Shown: positions 5-48,313 of the stretch, in pieces
Position numbering within the stretch: position 1 is the first letter of the stretch
How the letters are laid out: each line of letters begins with the position of its first letter
IMG/VR virus record: IMGVR_UViG_3300023223_001361
Span: 90,113-154,112 of that record
Length of the DNA stretch: 64,000 nt
DNA from: a virus
Reading direction: 5' to 3' (one strand)
Translations under genes and position numbers: made by a program
The notes under the pieces: generated by a model
The model's input: only the letters and a program-made list of their open reading frames with translations
Databases searched by the model: none
What the model was told of the DNA's origin: nothing

Positions 5-29
5 AAAAAACTGGCACGCGAATGTGCCA
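5..29 (-). terminator. Rho-independent terminator for the leftward early genes
   Basis: TGGCAC-gcgaat-GTGCCA hairpin (12-29) next to an A6 run that reads U6 on the minus strand. Confidence 0.65.
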
Positions 30-86
30 AGAAGTCAATGAAAACTTTGTTGCCAGGTGTCATAAAATGATTGGAGAAATTTTAGA

Positions 87-359
87 TTAGATAAGATTTT
101 CAAATTCTTTTATGATTTCCTCAAACTTCGAAAAGTCGTATATATCACGAAACTTATACCTGCCTCTATATCCACTATTACGCATTGATTGCGAACGAGC
201 TTTATAGCGTTTCATATCAGAGATGATGCCCTGGATATCTTCTTTGTTAAGTTTGTCTATATATTGTAACCATTCATCAAGGGCAAGCCCAGTTATACAG
301 AACGCTTCACCATATAGCTTCTTAATATTATCCATTTCTTTTTGTTCCGTGTCATTCAT
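87..359 (-). CDS. hypothetical protein
   Basis: 90-aa ORF in a leftward unit between a sigma70 promoter and a terminator. Confidence 0.6.
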   Translation of the reverse strand: MNDTEQKEMDNIKKLYGEAFCITGLALDEWLQYIDKLNKEDIQGIISDMKRYKARSQSMRNSGYRGRYKFRDIYDFSKFEEIIKEFENLI

Positions 360-360
360 T

Positions 361-573
361 TTAACGATCTCCAGAGCCTTTCAAATAATCCTCAAGCGAT
401 GAATCAGAATCAAAAAACTTTTTTGAATCAAGAAAACCTTCCATATACCGAAAACGTCCATGTTCTTCAATCTTTGTTTTTCTTCCGAATTCATCGAATG
501 GATAAAAACCAAAAAACAACATACCCAGTATGCCACAAATAACTGCTAGTGAAGAGAGTATTCCAAATAACAT
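361..573 (-). CDS. hypothetical protein with N-terminal TM helix
   Basis: hydrophobic N-terminus; abuts the next ORF. Confidence 0.5.
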   Translation of the reverse strand: MLFGILSSLAVICGILGMLFFGFYPFDEFGRKTKIEEHGRFRYMEGFLDSKKFFDSDSSLEDYLKGSGDR

Positions 574-755
574 ATTGATTCTCCTTTAATATCTTAATAC
601 ATACAATTACTATATCGTCAGAAACCCTATATAACTTTAGAATTCTAGGCACAAAAAAAGACTGCTCCAGAACGGAGCAGCCTAGAAGGAGGTTCACGAC
701 AAACATAGGATAAATCATAATGAAGGATTCTATATATTTCCTTCTTATACTTTAT

Positions 756-784
756 ATTCTATCAGTCTTCATACTCTTTGTCAA
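756..784 (-). promoter_or_regulatory. sigma70-type early promoter (leftward)
   Basis: minus strand TTGACA(784-779)-N17-TAGAAT(761-756). Confidence 0.8.
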
Positions 785-829: not shown

Positions 830-938
830 AAAAAAAGCCTCGTCGTGACTGTACACACAACGAGGCTTCCTAAGAGACTTGCTTAACGGATCGTCTTACC
901 GCACACGGTTTGCCAAACCGTGCGGCGTTCAAGTCTTT
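830..938 (-). ncRNA. putative ~110-nt structured small RNA with its own promoter and terminator
   Basis: promoter at 945-973; AGACTTG/CAAGTCT stem, CACGGTTT/AAACCGTG hairpin, terminator AAGCCTCGT/ACGAGGCTT + U tract; no ATG ORF. Confidence 0.65.
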
Positions 939-944
939 AGACTC

Positions 945-973
945 ATTCTATCAATATTTGTTCCATCTGTCAA
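945..973 (-). promoter_or_regulatory. sigma70-type promoter driving the sRNA
   Basis: minus strand TTGACA(973-968)-N17-TAGAAT(950-945). Confidence 0.8.
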
Positions 974-1192: not shown

Positions 1193-1221
1193 TTGACAAG
1201 GTGTCGCCTGCATGAGATAAT
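1193..1221 (+). promoter_or_regulatory. sigma70-type early promoter (rightward)
   Basis: TTGACA-N17-GATAAT followed by AGGAG RBS. Confidence 0.8.
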
Positions 1222-1243: not shown

Positions 1244-1402
1244 ATGAAAACGAAAAATCCAAAAACCCCAATGCAGTGTCTAGAGTGTAATAAGAAGTTT
1301 AATAAGGTTATCACGGATCGCACGTATGAAGTTCGATGCCCACGTTGTAAAGGGTACGATACTGAGGTTGCTTGTAATCTCTTATCATATGAGGGTAAAT
1401 AA
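1244..1402 (+). CDS. small zinc-ribbon protein (52 aa, not in ORF track)
   Basis: MKTKNPKTPMQCLECNKKF...VRCPRCKGYD, two CxxC; RBS; paralog of 7669..7824. Confidence 0.75.
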   Translation: MKTKNPKTPMQCLECNKKFNKVITDRTYEVRCPRCKGYDTEVACNLLSYEGK

Positions 1403-2043: not shown

Positions 2044-2205
2044 ATGACCCAGATATCAATAATCGATGACATATATTTGGAAGGATATACTGCCTATGTT
2101 GCAGGCTTAGATATTCATGATAATCCTTATAACAGTGGTGATGAACTTAGTTCATGGGATGATGGATGGTATCAAGCAAGACAAGATATATTAGATGAGA
2201 TGTAA
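2044..2205 (+). CDS. Rmf/CrpP-like small protein (53 aa, not in ORF track)
   Basis: EGYTAYVAG...NPY...SWDDGWYQA matches the Rmf pattern GYxAGxxG...PY...WxxGW. Confidence 0.55.
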   Translation: MTQISIIDDIYLEGYTAYVAGLDIHDNPYNSGDELSSWDDGWYQARQDILDEM

Positions 2206-44331: not shown

Positions 44332-45051
44332 ATGTCATTCAAAGCTATCGTTTTTTTGTTAGGTCATCAAGCTGGTGTGGGCAAAGACACCCTCGGTAAT
44401 CATCTTATTGGAAAAGAAGGTTTTATTAGATTTGCATTTGCTGATAAGTTGAAAGAATCTGTAGCGGATTTGTATGGTTTCACGAGACAGCAAATGTATA
44501 CTGATGAAGGAAAGAATATACCAGATGAAAGATATGAGAAATTTGGATGGTCGGAATGTGTACCTGGAGCTGAACAATTCCATGAGGCTAGATGGATTAA
44601 GAAAGGATATTATACGCCAAGAGAAATTCTTCAAGATTTTGGTCAAGAACAAAGAGCAAGATTTCCAGATATTTGGGCAGATTATGTTTTTCGACAAATC
44701 GAAGCTAGACTAGAATCTGATCTTTCAGATTTAGAAGATAGAGAGCCTGGAAGATTTGTTGTGACAGATTTTCGCTTTCCAAATGAATTTACGGTAGCTA
44801 GGAAATATGCTGCTAAATTGAATATTAAGATTATACCTGTCAAAATTGTACGGCCTGGAAAGAGAGATGATTTTCCTGGAGTATTGAATGTTAGTGAAAC
44901 TGCTTTGAATGATTTCACACAATGGAAACATATTCTTCGGAATGATGGAAGTATTGATGATTTGTATACTAAATACAAATCTCTAGATATAAATTATTTT
45001 GGGGGCGAAATGGGTTCGACGAGGGAAGTCAGAACTGAAGTAAGCGTGTAG
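44332..45051 (+). CDS. deoxynucleoside monophosphate kinase (T4 gp1-like); last 17 codons lie inside the tmRNA
   Basis: G.AGVGKDT, FADKLKE, PREILQ.FG, VVTDFRFPNE and NDGS; GGAG RBS before ATG 44332. Confidence 0.88.
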   Translation: MSFKAIVFLLGHQAGVGKDTLGNHLIGKEGFIRFAFADKLKESVADLYGFTRQQMYTDEGKNIPDERYEKFGWSECVPGAEQFHEARWIKKGYYTPREILQDFGQEQRARFPDIWADYVFRQIEARLESDLSDLEDREPGRFVVTDFRFPNEFTVARKYAAKLNIKIIPVKIVRPGKRDDFPGVLNVSETALNDFTQWKHILRNDGSIDDLYTKYKSLDINYFGGEMGSTREVRTEVSV

Positions 45052-45377
45052 AGGATAGGTAGTAGGCCTCTTTAATCATCTGCCTAAAGCTTTAATCGCA
45101 GCTAATCAAGACGATTACGCAGTTTACGCCCTAGCGGCATAACCTGTTTCTCACTCCATAGAGAGTGAGCGATCGAAGAATGAGATGTCTATGGTAATTC
45201 TAAGATCGTCATCCACTATAGAATCGGAATTGTAAGTCTGGAGCAGTTCTTAAATAAACAGACAAAATTCTTGTTAGTTTGTTCGTTTGTAAACAAGAGT
45301 ATCAAAACGAAATATACACGTAGAAATCTTTTGTAATGTTCTCTCGGACGCCGGTTCGATTCCGGCCGCTTCCACCA
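45001..45377 (+). ncRNA. ssrA: transfer-messenger RNA (tmRNA), 377 nt; tag (A)AANQDDYAVYALAA at 45098-45142
   Basis: GGGGGCG...GGTTCGAC 5' end, 3' T-arm GCCGGTTCGATTCCGGC + CGCTTCCACCA, G3-U70, resume context TAATC-GCA, tag ending YALAA*. Confidence 0.97.
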
Positions 45378-45389
45378 AATTTTGTTTAT

Positions 45390-45464
45390 GGTCCTTTGGT
45401 GAACTGGCTATCACACTACCCTGTCACGGTGGAGTAATGGGATCGATACCCGTAGGGACCGCCA
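45390..45464 (+). tRNA. tRNA-Asp(GUC)
   Basis: cloverleaf, loop CTGTCAC, G73, CCA. Confidence 0.92.
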
Positions 45465-45482
45465 TTTATAGTGGATAAGATA

Positions 45483-45851
45483 ATGAAACATTATATTGTA
45501 GAAATTAGACAAAGTGAATTTGATGGGAGGAAAACTTTTTACTTCACTGATGCTAAGGAAGGCGAAATGTTTCCTTGTGATATAGTATTATCTGACAAAT
45601 TTGGCGATACTAGTATTTTTCCTTGTACTATAGCTTGTGCTAGATATGGTGGAACTTACGAAGGTGGGAAGTGGCTAGCATTTCCAAAAGATGCAAACAA
45701 GTTGCCTCAAGATTATAATAGTAGTGATATTTCTTGTGCTTGTTTTTGGGAAAATTATGATGAATTTGTTGGTAAAGGTGATTCACCGCAAGAAGCATAT
45801 GATAATTTATTGAAACAATTGGATGAAAGAATAAAAATGGAGACTAAATAA
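45483..45851 (+). CDS. hypothetical protein
   Basis: ARYGGTYEGGKWLAF motif. Confidence 0.65.
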   Translation: MKHYIVEIRQSEFDGRKTFYFTDAKEGEMFPCDIVLSDKFGDTSIFPCTIACARYGGTYEGGKWLAFPKDANKLPQDYNSSDISCACFWENYDEFVGKGDSPQEAYDNLLKQLDERIKMETK

Positions 45852-46135
45852 TGGGACTTATACCTGTAGGGAAAAGAGTATTAGTGAGAGAAGCAGAAGC
45901 AAAAGAAACTACAGAAAGTGGACTTTTTCTTCCTGTGAATGCTCAACAGGAAATGATTACTCAAGGTGAGGTATTATGTGTGCCAGAAGTGGTCGAAAAA
46001 GATGTTGAAATACCTGTTGACAAAGGTGATAAGATATTGTATAATAGAAATGTAGCTGTTCCAGTTAAGGATTTAACAGGGGAACAATTATTCACTGTAG
46101 ACTTCGAGAGGATTCTAGTAAAGTTTAGAGACTGA
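45851..46135 (+). CDS. groES: co-chaperonin GroES
   Basis: P.GKRVLV...E.T.SGLFLP; GEVL.V; GDKILY. Confidence 0.9.
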   Translation: MGLIPVGKRVLVREAEAKETTESGLFLPVNAQQEMITQGEVLCVPEVVEKDVEIPVDKGDKILYNRNVAVPVKDLTGEQLFTVDFERILVKFRD

Positions 46136-46175
46136 TATGAGATCGGAAATTCATCATATAAGCTTCACATCAAAT

Positions 46176-46250
46176 GGTGTGCGTAGCTTAATGGTAAAGC
46201 ACCAGGCTGTGAACCTGGTGACACGAGTTCGATTCTCGTCGTACACCCCA
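46176..46250 (+). tRNA. tRNA-His(GUG)
   Basis: G-1:C73, loop CTGTGAA, CCA. Confidence 0.93.
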
Positions 46251-46276
46251 CTTCCGCCCGTTAGGGTGTAATTTAA

Positions 46277-46366
46277 CGGGGTGTAGGTCCGTAATCTGGT
46301 AGCGGTCTCGCTTTGGAAGCGAGTGGCATAATGCCCTTGGAGGTTCAAATCCTCTTGCCCCGACCA
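46277..46366 (+). tRNA. tRNA-Pro(UGG), atypical (long variable arm, A37)
   Basis: C1-G72, A73, CTCGC-TTTGGAA-GCGAG, GGCA-TAA-TGCC extra arm, CCA. Confidence 0.85.
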
Positions 46367-46374
46367 TTTTTTAA

Positions 46375-46854
46375 ATGAGTAATTTAAGAAATCACATTAG
46401 AGTAAATTGTCAATTTTGCGATAAAAATATTTCATTTCCTAATATAACTAAGCATGAAAATGCGTGTTACTTAAATCCAAAAAATATTAGGAAATGCCCA
46501 GTTTGTGATAAAATTATCAAGAATAAAGACAGTAATACTTGTTCATATTCTTGCTCTAATACATTTTATAGAAGCGGAAGAAATGCTTCTAATTGGAATG
46601 AAGAGACATATAGAACTACTTGTTTTGAATATCATGAAAAGAAGTGTGTTATTTGTTCTGAGGAATTAATAGTAGCTGTTCATCATTTAGATGGGAATAG
46701 AGAAAATAATAAACCAGAAAATTTAATTCCTTTATGTGCAACACATCATCAATATTGGCATAGCCGATATAGATATTTAATTGAAGATAAGGTAACTCAA
46801 TATATTTTCAAATGGAAGAAAAAGAACCAAGTAAATTTACAATTAACCAAATGA
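46375..46854 (+). CDS. HNH homing endonuclease
   Basis: VHHLDGNRENN..NL..LC..HH plus N-terminal CxxC zinc fingers; inside the tRNA cluster. Confidence 0.88.
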   Translation: MSNLRNHIRVNCQFCDKNISFPNITKHENACYLNPKNIRKCPVCDKIIKNKDSNTCSYSCSNTFYRSGRNASNWNEETYRTTCFEYHEKKCVICSEELIVAVHHLDGNRENNKPENLIPLCATHHQYWHSRYRYLIEDKVTQYIFKWKKKNQVNLQLTK

Positions 46855-47114
46855 GATTAGAAGCTTTAAAATCTTGGCAGGGATCCAAAATATTTTCAAC
46901 TACTGCATCTAGAGAAATGAGATTAGCTCTTAAGCAGGTAATCAGAGAATTGGAACCGTCTAAATCAAAAAAGAAATAGATTATGATTGATCAAAGAATT
47001 TTGCTTAAGTTGAATAAAAGAGATAAGAAAAAACTTGCCATCATAAAAGTAAGAACAGAAAAAGGTCTTCGGTTCCAACTTTATAGATATGGAGGTGAGT
47101 GGAAAGAAATAATA

Positions 47115-47189
47115 TGCGGCATGGAGAAGTAGTAACTCACCGTGTTCATAACTCGGAGATCGCAAGTGCAAATCTTGTTGCCGCTACCA
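47115..47189 (+). tRNA. tRNA-Met(CAU), initiator-like
   Basis: U1-U72 mismatch, A11-U24, loop TTCATAA, CCA. Confidence 0.85.
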
Positions 47190-47208
47190 AGTTATAATGG
47201 AGAATATT

Positions 47209-47457
47209 ATGATACCTTTAGGTAAAAAAGCGAAAGATAAAATAACTGGATTTGTTGGCATCATTATAGGTCGAGCACAATACTTGACAGGTTGTGATCA
47301 ATATGCATTAGTTGCAGAAGTAGTAGAAGCTACTTAAGGACCTGGTAAGTCTGAATGGTTTGATGAGGGCAGAGTAGAAGTTGTTGGTGCTGGGATAGAA
47401 CCCTCAGAATTACAAGGGTCGATTGCAGGTGGTCCACAAAGAGATGCACCTGAGTAA
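47209..47457 (+). pseudogene. phage hypothetical gene interrupted by an in-frame TAA at 47335
   Basis: MIPLGKKAKDKITGF.G..GR..YLTGCDQY...T*GPGKSEWFDEGRVEV...GGPQ reads through in one frame; GGAG RBS. Confidence 0.7.
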
Positions 47458-47474
47458 AGTTTGGAGAAAGAATT

Positions 47475-47672
47475 ATGAAAACACATAAATTAAAAACAGA
47501 ACATGATTATAGTAATTTTGAAGTTTCTAATGCTATTCATGAGGTTTATGAATTACTTCAACATCTTAGAAAAAGTAATTCTTTATTCTTACAGATGTAT
47601 TGTAAATCAGAAAGAATATTAGGTGATTTAGATAGAAGTAATGCTGAATATTCTTTCAAATCTAAGAAATAA
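47475..47672 (+). CDS. hypothetical protein
   Basis: GGAG RBS; 65 aa. Confidence 0.55.
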   Translation: MKTHKLKTEHDYSNFEVSNAIHEVYELLQHLRKSNSLFLQMYCKSERILGDLDRSNAEYSFKSKK

Positions 47673-47718
47673 TTTTATAATGAATAAAGAAACAGAAGTG
47701 TTTAATAAAGTTGTTAAC

Positions 47719-47746
47719 GAAGGTCCGATCCCTTCTCTCCCAGCCA
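47719..47746 (+). pseudogene. 3' remnant of a tRNA (Gln-like)
   Basis: T-arm GAAGG-TCCGATC-CCTTC + TCTCCCA-G-CCA; no matching 5' half. Confidence 0.55.
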
Positions 47747-47748
47747 AC

Positions 47749-47843
47749 GGAAGTGTAAGCCGAAAGATTCTGGGTAGCGGTGGTCGCCTTGAAAGCGAAG
47801 TGTCTTAACCGACGTGTGGGTTCGAATCCTACCACTTCCGCCA
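47749..47843 (+). tRNA. tRNA-Ser(UGA)
   Basis: GGAAGTG/CACTTCC, G73, loop CTTGAAA, long variable arm, enlarged D-loop. Confidence 0.9.
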
Positions 47844-47846
47844 TTT

Positions 47847-47934
47847 GGAAACTTGGCAGAGCGGTTTATTGCGCTGGTTTGCTAAATCAGTAAGTGTAAA
47901 AGCTTCATAGGTTCGAATCCTATAGTTTCCGCCA
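47847..47934 (+). tRNA. tRNA-Ser(GCU)
   Basis: loop TTGCTAA, long variable arm, G73, CCA. Confidence 0.93.
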
Positions 47935-47936
47935 TA

Positions 47937-48042
47937 TGCGAGTTGGTGAATAATCCAGCGAAAGGCTTTAGATCGAGTAGTGAAATCACGCTGGTAGTTC
48001 ATAACCAGTATAGAGTATAACGGGAAAACTCGCTCGCGACCA
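47937..48042 (+). ncRNA. 106-nt tRNA-like RNA with acceptor stem and CCA but non-canonical arms
   Basis: TGCGAGT/GCTCGCG-A-CCA closes several short hairpins; no TTC T-loop. Confidence 0.65.
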
Positions 48043-48117
48043 GTTTTAAGTTAGAGATGGAAAAATGAAAAGTAAAGTTAGAAATTCAAATACAGAAAGT
48101 GAACGAGAACCCAATAA

Positions 48118-48193
48118 GGGTCCATCGTCTACGCTGGTTAGGATACTTGGCTTTCACCCAGGAGAAGTGGGATCGTCGCCGCTGGACCTACCA
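48118..48193 (+). tRNA. tRNA-Glu(UUC), degenerate T-arm
   Basis: loop CTTTCAC, CCA; G1-U72; T-loop ATCGTCG with disrupted stem. Confidence 0.8.
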
Positions 48194-48227
48194 TTTTTTC
48201 TTATTATCGATACGCTGTATAATATAC

Positions 48228-48313
48228 GGGGTATCGCCAGAGTGGGAGCTGTGAGCGGTCTGTAAAATCGCTGTCTTAGGACTAGGAAGGTTCGATTCCT
48301 TCATGCCCCACCA
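48228..48313 (+). tRNA. tRNA-Tyr(GUA)
   Basis: loop CTGTAAA, long variable arm, A73, CCA. Confidence 0.92.

Follow-up and report, generated by a model that had tools for sequence, protein, structure and literature searches.

The stretch of DNA analysed here, referred to as the window, is 64,000 nucleotides long and corresponds to positions 90,113-154,112 of a 160,399-bp IMG/VR virus record of metagenomic origin. A 144-bp terminal repeat in the record indicates that the assembly is circular. The genome has a G+C content of 33.9%, codes for homologues of T4-type baseplate proteins, gp32 and gp59, and carries a tmRNA and five tRNAs. The phage is a distant T4-like myovirus without a close cultured relative, and the top phage-database match of its gp5-like protein is only 35% identical. 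The cluster of these genes, on the plus strand at window 45001-48313, begins with the tmRNA (tag AANQDDYAVYALAA) and continues with tRNA-Asp(GTC), His(GTG), Met, Ser(GCT) and Tyr(GTA), the tRNA genes being spaced by gaps of 290-860 nt; three of the four GUN-anticodon tRNAs are encoded here. Additionally, a 53-aa ORF at window 2044-2205 (plus strand) matches the Pfam family RMF (ribosome modulation factor, PF04957) with an E-value of 9.6e-6 and 26.0 bits, against a cut-off of 27.9 bits, and this RMF-like ORF hints, without doing more than that, at a gammaproteobacterial host. When the host was searched for by tmRNA BLAST against 400 genomes, the matches were confined to the universal 3' end.

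The subject of this study is a short unit, RNA1, that heads an island of minus-strand features (5-973) set among early genes of the plus strand. Read along the minus strand, the island consists of a promoter, a terminator, a second promoter, a second terminator, ORFs led by Shine-Dalgarno (SD) sequences, and a closing terminator. The features of the island and of the region upstream of it are as follows, in window coordinates.

1193 to 1221, plus strand: divergent rightward promoter, TTGACA-17-GATAAT with the TG present, driving the early genes of the plus strand
1041 to 1096, no strand: triple 18-bp palindrome, its three copies perfect and alternating in orientation, at a distance of 68-123 bp upstream from the -35 element of RNA1
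945 to 973, minus strand: RNA1 promoter, -35 TTGACA at 973-968, 17-nt spacer, TG at 953-952 (extended -10), -10 TAGAAT at 950-945
830 to 938, minus strand: predicted RNA1 transcript, about 105-109 nt, non-coding, with no ATG- or SD-led frame
875 to 936, minus strand: 5' domain of RNA1, a three-way junction of P1 (936-930/881-875), P2 (927-900) and P3 (895-885)
830 to 871, minus strand: RNA1 intrinsic terminator, stem 866-856/847-837, extendable to 871-832, 8-nt loop, U7 tail at 836-830
756 to 784, minus strand: second promoter, repeating the hexamers of the RNA1 promoter and TGATAGAAT, 46 nt past the RNA1 U-tract
652 to 750, minus strand: RNA2 or leader, about 95 nt; its SD-like AAGAAGGA and anti-SD-like ACCUCCUUC pair with each other; terminator 683-659 followed by T7
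361 to 573, minus strand: ORF70, 70 aa, preceded by a good SD (AAAGGAG), hydrophobic helix at the N-terminus; orphan
87 to 359, minus strand: ORF90, 90 aa, helical, with a basic C-terminal half; orphan
5 to 30, minus strand: terminator closing the island, dG -11.9, T6

Promoters, terminators and repeats of the island

The near-perfect sigma70 promoter (TTGACA-17-TAGAAT) that the initial annotation had proposed is present at 973-945 on the minus strand; it scores 11 out of 12, its spacer ends in TGA and it has an extended -10 in addition. Judged from the spacing, transcription would start at an A at about 938, 7 nt past the -10. This promoter is not an isolated sequence. Alignment of the strong promoters of the genome reveals a coherent class, TTGACA-N14-TGA-(G/T)A(T/G)AAT, in which a C often precedes the -35, and promoters scoring at least 11 out of 12 number 23 in the genome as compared to 9.6 +/- 3.5 in dinucleotide shuffles, a frequency more than twice that of the shuffles. 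Membership of the 973 promoter in this class supports transcription that depends on host sigma70 and so would be early. About ten other promoters of the class all have an SD and a start codon within 20-40 nt, and those at 973 and 784 are the only members that do not, which in the case of the 973 promoter supports a non-coding product. Strong promoters followed by a strong terminator within 260 nt number two in the genome, and 20 shuffles held none. The second pair (784-652) lies directly downstream of RNA1, before the two orphan ORFs.

The terminators of the island stand out in a similar way. We counted as a strong intrinsic terminator any hairpin with a dG of -11 or better and a T-run of at least six, and the 160-kb genome has only five of these. 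Three of the five, including the two strongest, are in the 1-kb island, and the remaining two are on the plus strand (T7 at genome position 30,375 and T6 at 129,243). With a dG of -19.1 and T7, the RNA1 terminator is the strongest in the genome; the terminator of the neighbouring 784 unit, at -15.4, is the second strongest of those with a T-run of six or more. The strength and the U7 tail agree with the strong terminator described initially, whereas the stem is longer than the 9 bp given then, having 11 G+C-rich pairs, or 16 with the A/G-U pairs to the tail included. There is no T-run after it on the plus strand, so the terminator is unidirectional.

The unit that starts at 784 resembles RNA1 in its layout and has some properties of its own. 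Its fold has a z-score of -3.5. The 5' part of RNA2 looks like the normal SD leaders of this phage (ATAAGAAGGA), but no start codon follows at the proper distance. RNA2 also includes ACCUCCUUCUAGG, a sequence similar to the 3' terminus of 16S rRNA, and this is paired with the SD-like stretch. The unit may serve as a leader that attenuates the 70-aa membrane ORF, or it may make an sRNA bearing an anti-SD. Protein searches of 5.8 and 1.84 billion proteins with ORF70 and ORF90 returned only self-matches, that of ORF70 being its sole match among the 1.84 billion representatives. ORF90 has no Pfam or PHROG family, the Atlas was uninformative for it, and its AlphaFold model is helical and of low confidence. 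A protein search with ORF79 gave no match.

Upstream of RNA1, the 18-bp repeat occurs in three copies where 0.16 would be expected by chance, and the triple palindrome is probably a protein-binding site between the divergent promoters. Its copies belong to a cluster of GAATATTCG boxes; six of the seven boxes of the genome lie at genome 89,720-91,210 (window -390 to 1096; positions 290-505 of locus L001), within 1.4 kb around the island. The cluster also has an extended form of the box, AGAACGAATATTC, and a 16-nt direct repeat, TCAGAACGAATATTCA, at window -193 to -178 and 1036 to 1051, brackets the island. Boxes and bracketing repeat together look like a set of operator sites, or possibly mark the boundaries of a cassette. 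Just left of the window, three tandem iteron-like direct repeats of 21 bp (CTCTTTGATGCCTACACTTTG; L001 177-240, genome 89,608-89,671) sit in an apparently non-coding, G+C-rich stretch of about 480 nt. All this clearly marks the region around the island as a regulatory hub. The first gene of the rightward operon (window 1244-1402, plus strand) codes for a 52-aa CxxC...CxxC zinc ribbon with weak PHROG matches to Mu Com and a 'translational regulator' family (E-values of 2e-4 and 7e-3) that are generic to zinc ribbons; it is a possible RNA-binding protein adjoining the RNA genes.

Fold, composition and coding potential of RNA1

The 5' domain of RNA1 is closed by P1, the 7-bp AGACTTG/CAAGTCT stem already pointed out in the initial annotation as enclosing a hairpin, which pairs from nucleotide 3 onward and closes around two hairpins, P2 and P3. 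P2 is a bulged 12-bp hairpin with a GGC loop and P3 is a 4-bp hairpin with the loop AUC. The strands of the junction are AA, (G)UAAG and UAAG, and a 3-nt linker separates P1 from the terminator. The whole of RNA1 has a minimum free energy of -47.6 kcal/mol and a z-score of -4.5, with none of 200 shuffles being equally stable. For the 68-nt core alone the z-score is a moderate -2.85, and three of 200 shuffles fold as well. Pair probabilities in P1, P2 and P3 are mostly 0.8-1.0. Nearly all of the nucleotides are paired, the sole open stretch being CUCUU, followed by AGGAAG, which pairs weakly with the U-tail.

Folding of successive 5' fragments gives the same 5' domain each time, as does folding with the terminator forbidden, so that the domain is predicted to form before the terminator and independently of it. 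The 5' arm of the terminator has no alternative partner and stays unpaired until the 3' arm is transcribed. RNA1 thus consists of two independent modules with no antiterminator alternative, which makes it sRNA-like rather than a riboswitch or attenuator. The latter reading was rejected on these grounds, there being no mutually exclusive structures, and on account of the consensus promoter at 784-756 that intervenes before the ORFs.

The initial annotation had also described an RNA of about 110 nt that lacks an ATG ORF and is GC-rich on an AT-rich background, and both points hold. ATG is absent from RNA1 and the sole frame is one of 20 codons that opens with TTG (932-870), and the G+C content is 49.5% as compared to 33.9% for the genome, which places RNA1 at the 99.3rd percentile among the 109-nt windows of the genome. 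One might propose that this frame makes a micro-peptide from its non-AUG start, and the existence of the frame is what speaks for it. However, the TTG lies only about 6 nt from the predicted 5' end, it has no SD, and the frame falls wholly inside the helices of P1, P2 and P3, whereas the other promoters of the class have leaders with a clear SD and ATG. We regard a coding role as highly improbable. Taken as a whole the RNA1 unit is more than chance would produce, and we can confirm that the observation is real and non-random.

Searches for relatives, families and targets

No Rfam family reached its threshold when covariance models were run with E-values up to 10, and this includes the tRNA- and tmRNA-like, 6S, Y RNA, CRISPR-repeat, ToxI-type antitoxin, ribozyme and riboswitch families. 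The best overlapping matches were ncr982 with 19 bits (cut-off 50) and nse_sRNA with 16 bits (cut-off 75). Both cover the terminator, and we dismissed an identity with either as terminator-driven noise. A tRNA-like reading was likewise dropped, with no Rfam match and nothing found at RNA1 by ARAGORN.

Direct searches for homologues of RNA1 gave the same picture. There was no match by megablast or blastn against phages or in searches against plasmids and E. coli genomes, none for exact and gapped patterns in IMG/VR viral contigs, and none in one pattern scan of JGI metagenome contigs. A few matches elsewhere were set aside as chance. Four metagenome contigs matched a pattern in its specified letters only, with the inner hairpins absent and covariance-model scores of 13.8-15.4 bits; eight GTDB genome contigs matched the 19-nt hairpin apex, which is about the number expected by chance and concerns the hairpin only; and one viral contig matched the 18-mer palindrome with no further similarity to the window. 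We also built a covariance model, R1, from the single RNA1 sequence. It found no paralogue in the phage genome, where RNA1 is unique, and nothing in six loci of T4-like relatives or in the 470 kb made up by 80 IMG/VR loci that surround DUF7717 genes.

The neighbourhood is just as hard to trace. The nearest relative, with a tail protein 80% identical, is on a 47.8-kb Logan contig (SRR33375174) that does not reach the RNA1 region, and the closest contig bearing DUF7717 has only that gene in common and no synteny in the RNA1 region. Since no homologue was found in the collections searched, the fold of RNA1 comes without covariation support, and as far as searched the unit appears to be lineage-specific. 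A 164-kb IMG/VR relative, L024, whose DUF7717 protein is 50% identical, has a TTGACA-17-TAGACT promoter on the minus strand within 1714-2045, and the same is seen in L023 and L098. Downstream of this promoter lie a leader of 69 nt containing a terminator-like hairpin, an ORF for a 54-aa membrane protein and a terminator. The unit is about 950 nt upstream of the DUF7717 gene on the opposite strand, and by position it corresponds to the 784 unit and not to RNA1.

Possible pairing partners were looked for within the phage. The best duplex of the seed and linker region of RNA1 with 225 translation-start regions of the phage had -17.1 kcal/mol, as compared to a mean null minimum of -17.4. For duplexes with RNA2 and with the 750-340 transcript, 58% and 92% of the shuffled nulls were as good, and identity or complementarity of RNA1 11-mers elsewhere in the genome was at chance level. 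The lack of a phage target above shuffles fits a mode of action that is not based on pairing with phage RNAs, or a host target. Two kinds of antitoxin were also considered and rejected. A type I antitoxin would call for extended complementarity to neighbouring transcripts, and none goes beyond shuffles; a type III (ToxI-like) antitoxin would call for tandem repeats, and none occur in 830-973, which is present in a single copy with no second one found in the genome by the covariance model. The suggestions that RNA1 is a protein sponge, an antitoxin mimic or an anti-defence RNA gained no support from this work, which turned up no Rfam family, repeats, homologues or complementarity that would point to one of them.

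Interpretation and comparison with known systems

In our preferred reading, RNA1 (973-830, minus strand) represents a genuine early sRNA gene of the phage that stands alone and has a product of about 105 nt, and on this our judgement is evenly balanced. It was put forward in the initial annotation and is well supported at the sequence level by the promoter, the lack of coding potential, the modular and G+C-enriched fold and the strongest terminator of the genome. In its sequence RNA1 has attributes of an independent sRNA gene, namely its own promoter, its own Rho-independent terminator and no predicted translated ORF, and its 3' end, a terminator hairpin with U7, is of the kind that Hfq and ProQ bind, for which a U-tail of at least six is looked for. 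Upon entry of the DNA, unmodified host sigma70 RNA polymerase would initiate at the extended -10 consensus promoter; the RNA would fold co-transcriptionally into a compact three-way junction with its 5' end paired from nucleotide 3, and would be released at the very strong terminator, leaving a hairpin and U-tail. Abundant, immediate-early expression, as suggested at the outset, might follow from the quality of the promoter. As a stable and structured molecule, RNA1 could then act in trans by binding a protein, be it an RNA-binding protein of host or phage or a chaperone of the ProQ/Hfq type. We propose protein binding because single strand is scarce and because the helix at the 5' end and the hairpin and U-tail at the 3' end are the usual features that stabilise an RNA or bind it to a chaperone, and we consider it more likely than classical antisense action through a long seed.

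The main rival, and a real one, follows from the arrangement of the island, where a second promoter-terminator unit and two ORFs on the same strand come directly after RNA1. RNA1 could be a terminated leader, the by-product of a two-tier promoter/terminator cascade (from 973 to the terminator at 835 and from 784 to that at 659). Until the terminators are read through, the two small ORFs at 573-87, of which one codes for a membrane protein, may then stay nearly silent, and a function of RNA1 itself would be optional. The succession of promoter, terminator, promoter, terminator, SD-led ORFs and terminator on one strand speaks for such a cascade, and the 973 and 784 promoters both carry TGATAGAAT. 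StxS shows that by-products of this sort exist and can turn into sRNAs (PMC7547250), and non-coding RNAs terminated in 5'UTRs are frequent in virulent phages, with many in Pseudomonas phages (bioRxiv 10.1101/2023.10.13.562163). In the distant relative L024, a small membrane-protein gene at the same position relative to the DUF7717 gene is preceded by a promoter and by a leader that has a terminator-like hairpin; however, this is a closer match to the 784 unit than to RNA1. An objection is the full consensus promoter at 784 between RNA1 and the ORFs, which means that RNA1 is not needed for their expression. RNA1 moreover has no antiterminator alternative structure, the initial transcribed region of the 973 promoter shows no evident -10-like pause element, an admittedly non-exhaustive look identified no antiterminator of the Q or N type, and it is not obvious what a G+C-rich three-way junction would do in a mere leader. 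On balance we find the cascade rather unlikely.

It could also be that the act of transcription matters and not its product, either as an origin-activating or primer transcript as at the T4 origins, or as an insulator that meets rightward read-through head-on. The triple palindrome, the GAATATTCG boxes and the 21-bp iterons cluster around the island, the early promoters are divergent, and no plus-strand terminator was found between 70 and 1193. Against an origin, the R-loop origins of T4 require, downstream of their promoter, an unwinding element rich in A+T (PMC3016281), and we rejected an R-loop transcript of this type because the DNA of RNA1 is instead among the most G+C-rich of the genome. 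RNA1 also folds on itself, is freed by the strongest terminator and is transcribed away from the palindromes, all of which makes this reading improbable. A similarly low probability goes to the view that the unit is a non-functional relic in an early region of fast turnover, a promoter and a terminator left after gene loss with a spacer that happens to fold. It would agree with the orphan state of the RNA1 unit and both neighbouring ORFs, with the lack of synteny in the region even with the closest contig bearing DUF7717, and with the adjoining 784 leader, which is a normal-looking SD leader without a start codon. Relics in a phage of about 34% G+C should drift towards A+T, though, and RNA1 is at the 99.3rd percentile of G+C, has a 5' domain that is nearly completely paired, and retains intact consensus signals and the best terminator of the genome.

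Returning to the reading of RNA1 as an early sRNA gene, this would be an orphan addition to a known kind, the small RNAs encoded by phages, and as such a well-formed prediction and not a discovery. To our knowledge, strictly lytic phages have only a small number of stand-alone regulatory RNAs, and for hardly any of these is the function known. RNA1 offers a cleanly delimited and testable candidate, with a consensus promoter, a 62-nt junction domain and the best terminator of its genome, in an island that is itself unusual for its second unit with an anti-SD-like motif, its orphan ORFs and its clustered predicted protein-binding boxes. Given that the phage has genes for a tmRNA, for RNA-repair enzymes and for an RMF-like protein, an RNA acting on host translation or RNA-based defence is conceivable. 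A far-reaching version, which we consider a long shot, would make RNA1 the founder of an undescribed class of phage decoy RNAs that are made within the first seconds of infection and sequester a host RNA-binding protein of defence or housekeeping. If the terminal U-A pairs at the apex of P2 are open, a 5-bp stem with the 7-nt loop UUGGCAA results (U33, R37, anticodon GGC), and to an anticodon nuclease or modification enzyme this would look like the anticodon arm of a tRNA. The setting for such a decoy is a phage rich in RNA-repair, tRNA, tmRNA and ribosome-targeting genes.

Within the T4 group, RNAs C and D of T4 (species 1 and 2) are small stable non-coding RNAs of unknown function that sit in the tRNA cluster and are processed from a tRNA precursor. 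Compared by description, RNA1 differs from them in being 44 kb away from the tRNA/tmRNA cluster and in having its own promoter and terminator. [quoted passage not shown]

RNA1 resembles in its makeup sRNAs of the ProQ/FinO and Hfq classes such as RaiZ (PMC5391140), which have their own promoter, extensive structure and a terminator hairpin with a U-tail, and the small amount of single-stranded sequence in RNA1 is typical of ProQ ligands. It differs from them in that it has no family match and in that its open CUCUU/AGGAAG has no phage target above the null. The likeness to the 6S RNA of lambda PR'-tR' and to StxS (PMC7547250) lies in the arrangement, a phage promoter followed almost at once by a strong terminator upstream of genes on the same strand, and in that system the unit yields a short Hfq-binding RNA. 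StxS is part of Q-antitermination control in temperate lambdoid phages, whereas RNA1 belongs to a T4-like phage in which a non-exhaustive look identified no Q-like gene and no pause element, and the terminator of RNA1, unlike that of StxS, is succeeded by an independent promoter.

A further parallel is with virulent phages, for which short structured early or 5'-proximal non-coding RNAs have been documented (bioRxiv 10.1101/2023.10.13.562163). Candidates from phiKZ, PAK_P3 and LUZ/YuA phages came from ONT-cappable-seq, dRNA-seq and Grad-seq, and they are conserved within the genus only (bioRxiv 10.1101/2023.10.13.562163; PMC8244752). There is no sequence or structure relationship between these RNAs and RNA1, and they were found by transcript mapping whereas RNA1 is predicted from sequence. 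They are nevertheless alike in being short (about 90-200 nt) and structured, in having a start and an intrinsic terminator, in their origin from lytic phages and in that their function is mostly unknown. Most of them lie in the 5'UTR of a gene, and RNA1 is set apart from these by a second full promoter before the next ORF.
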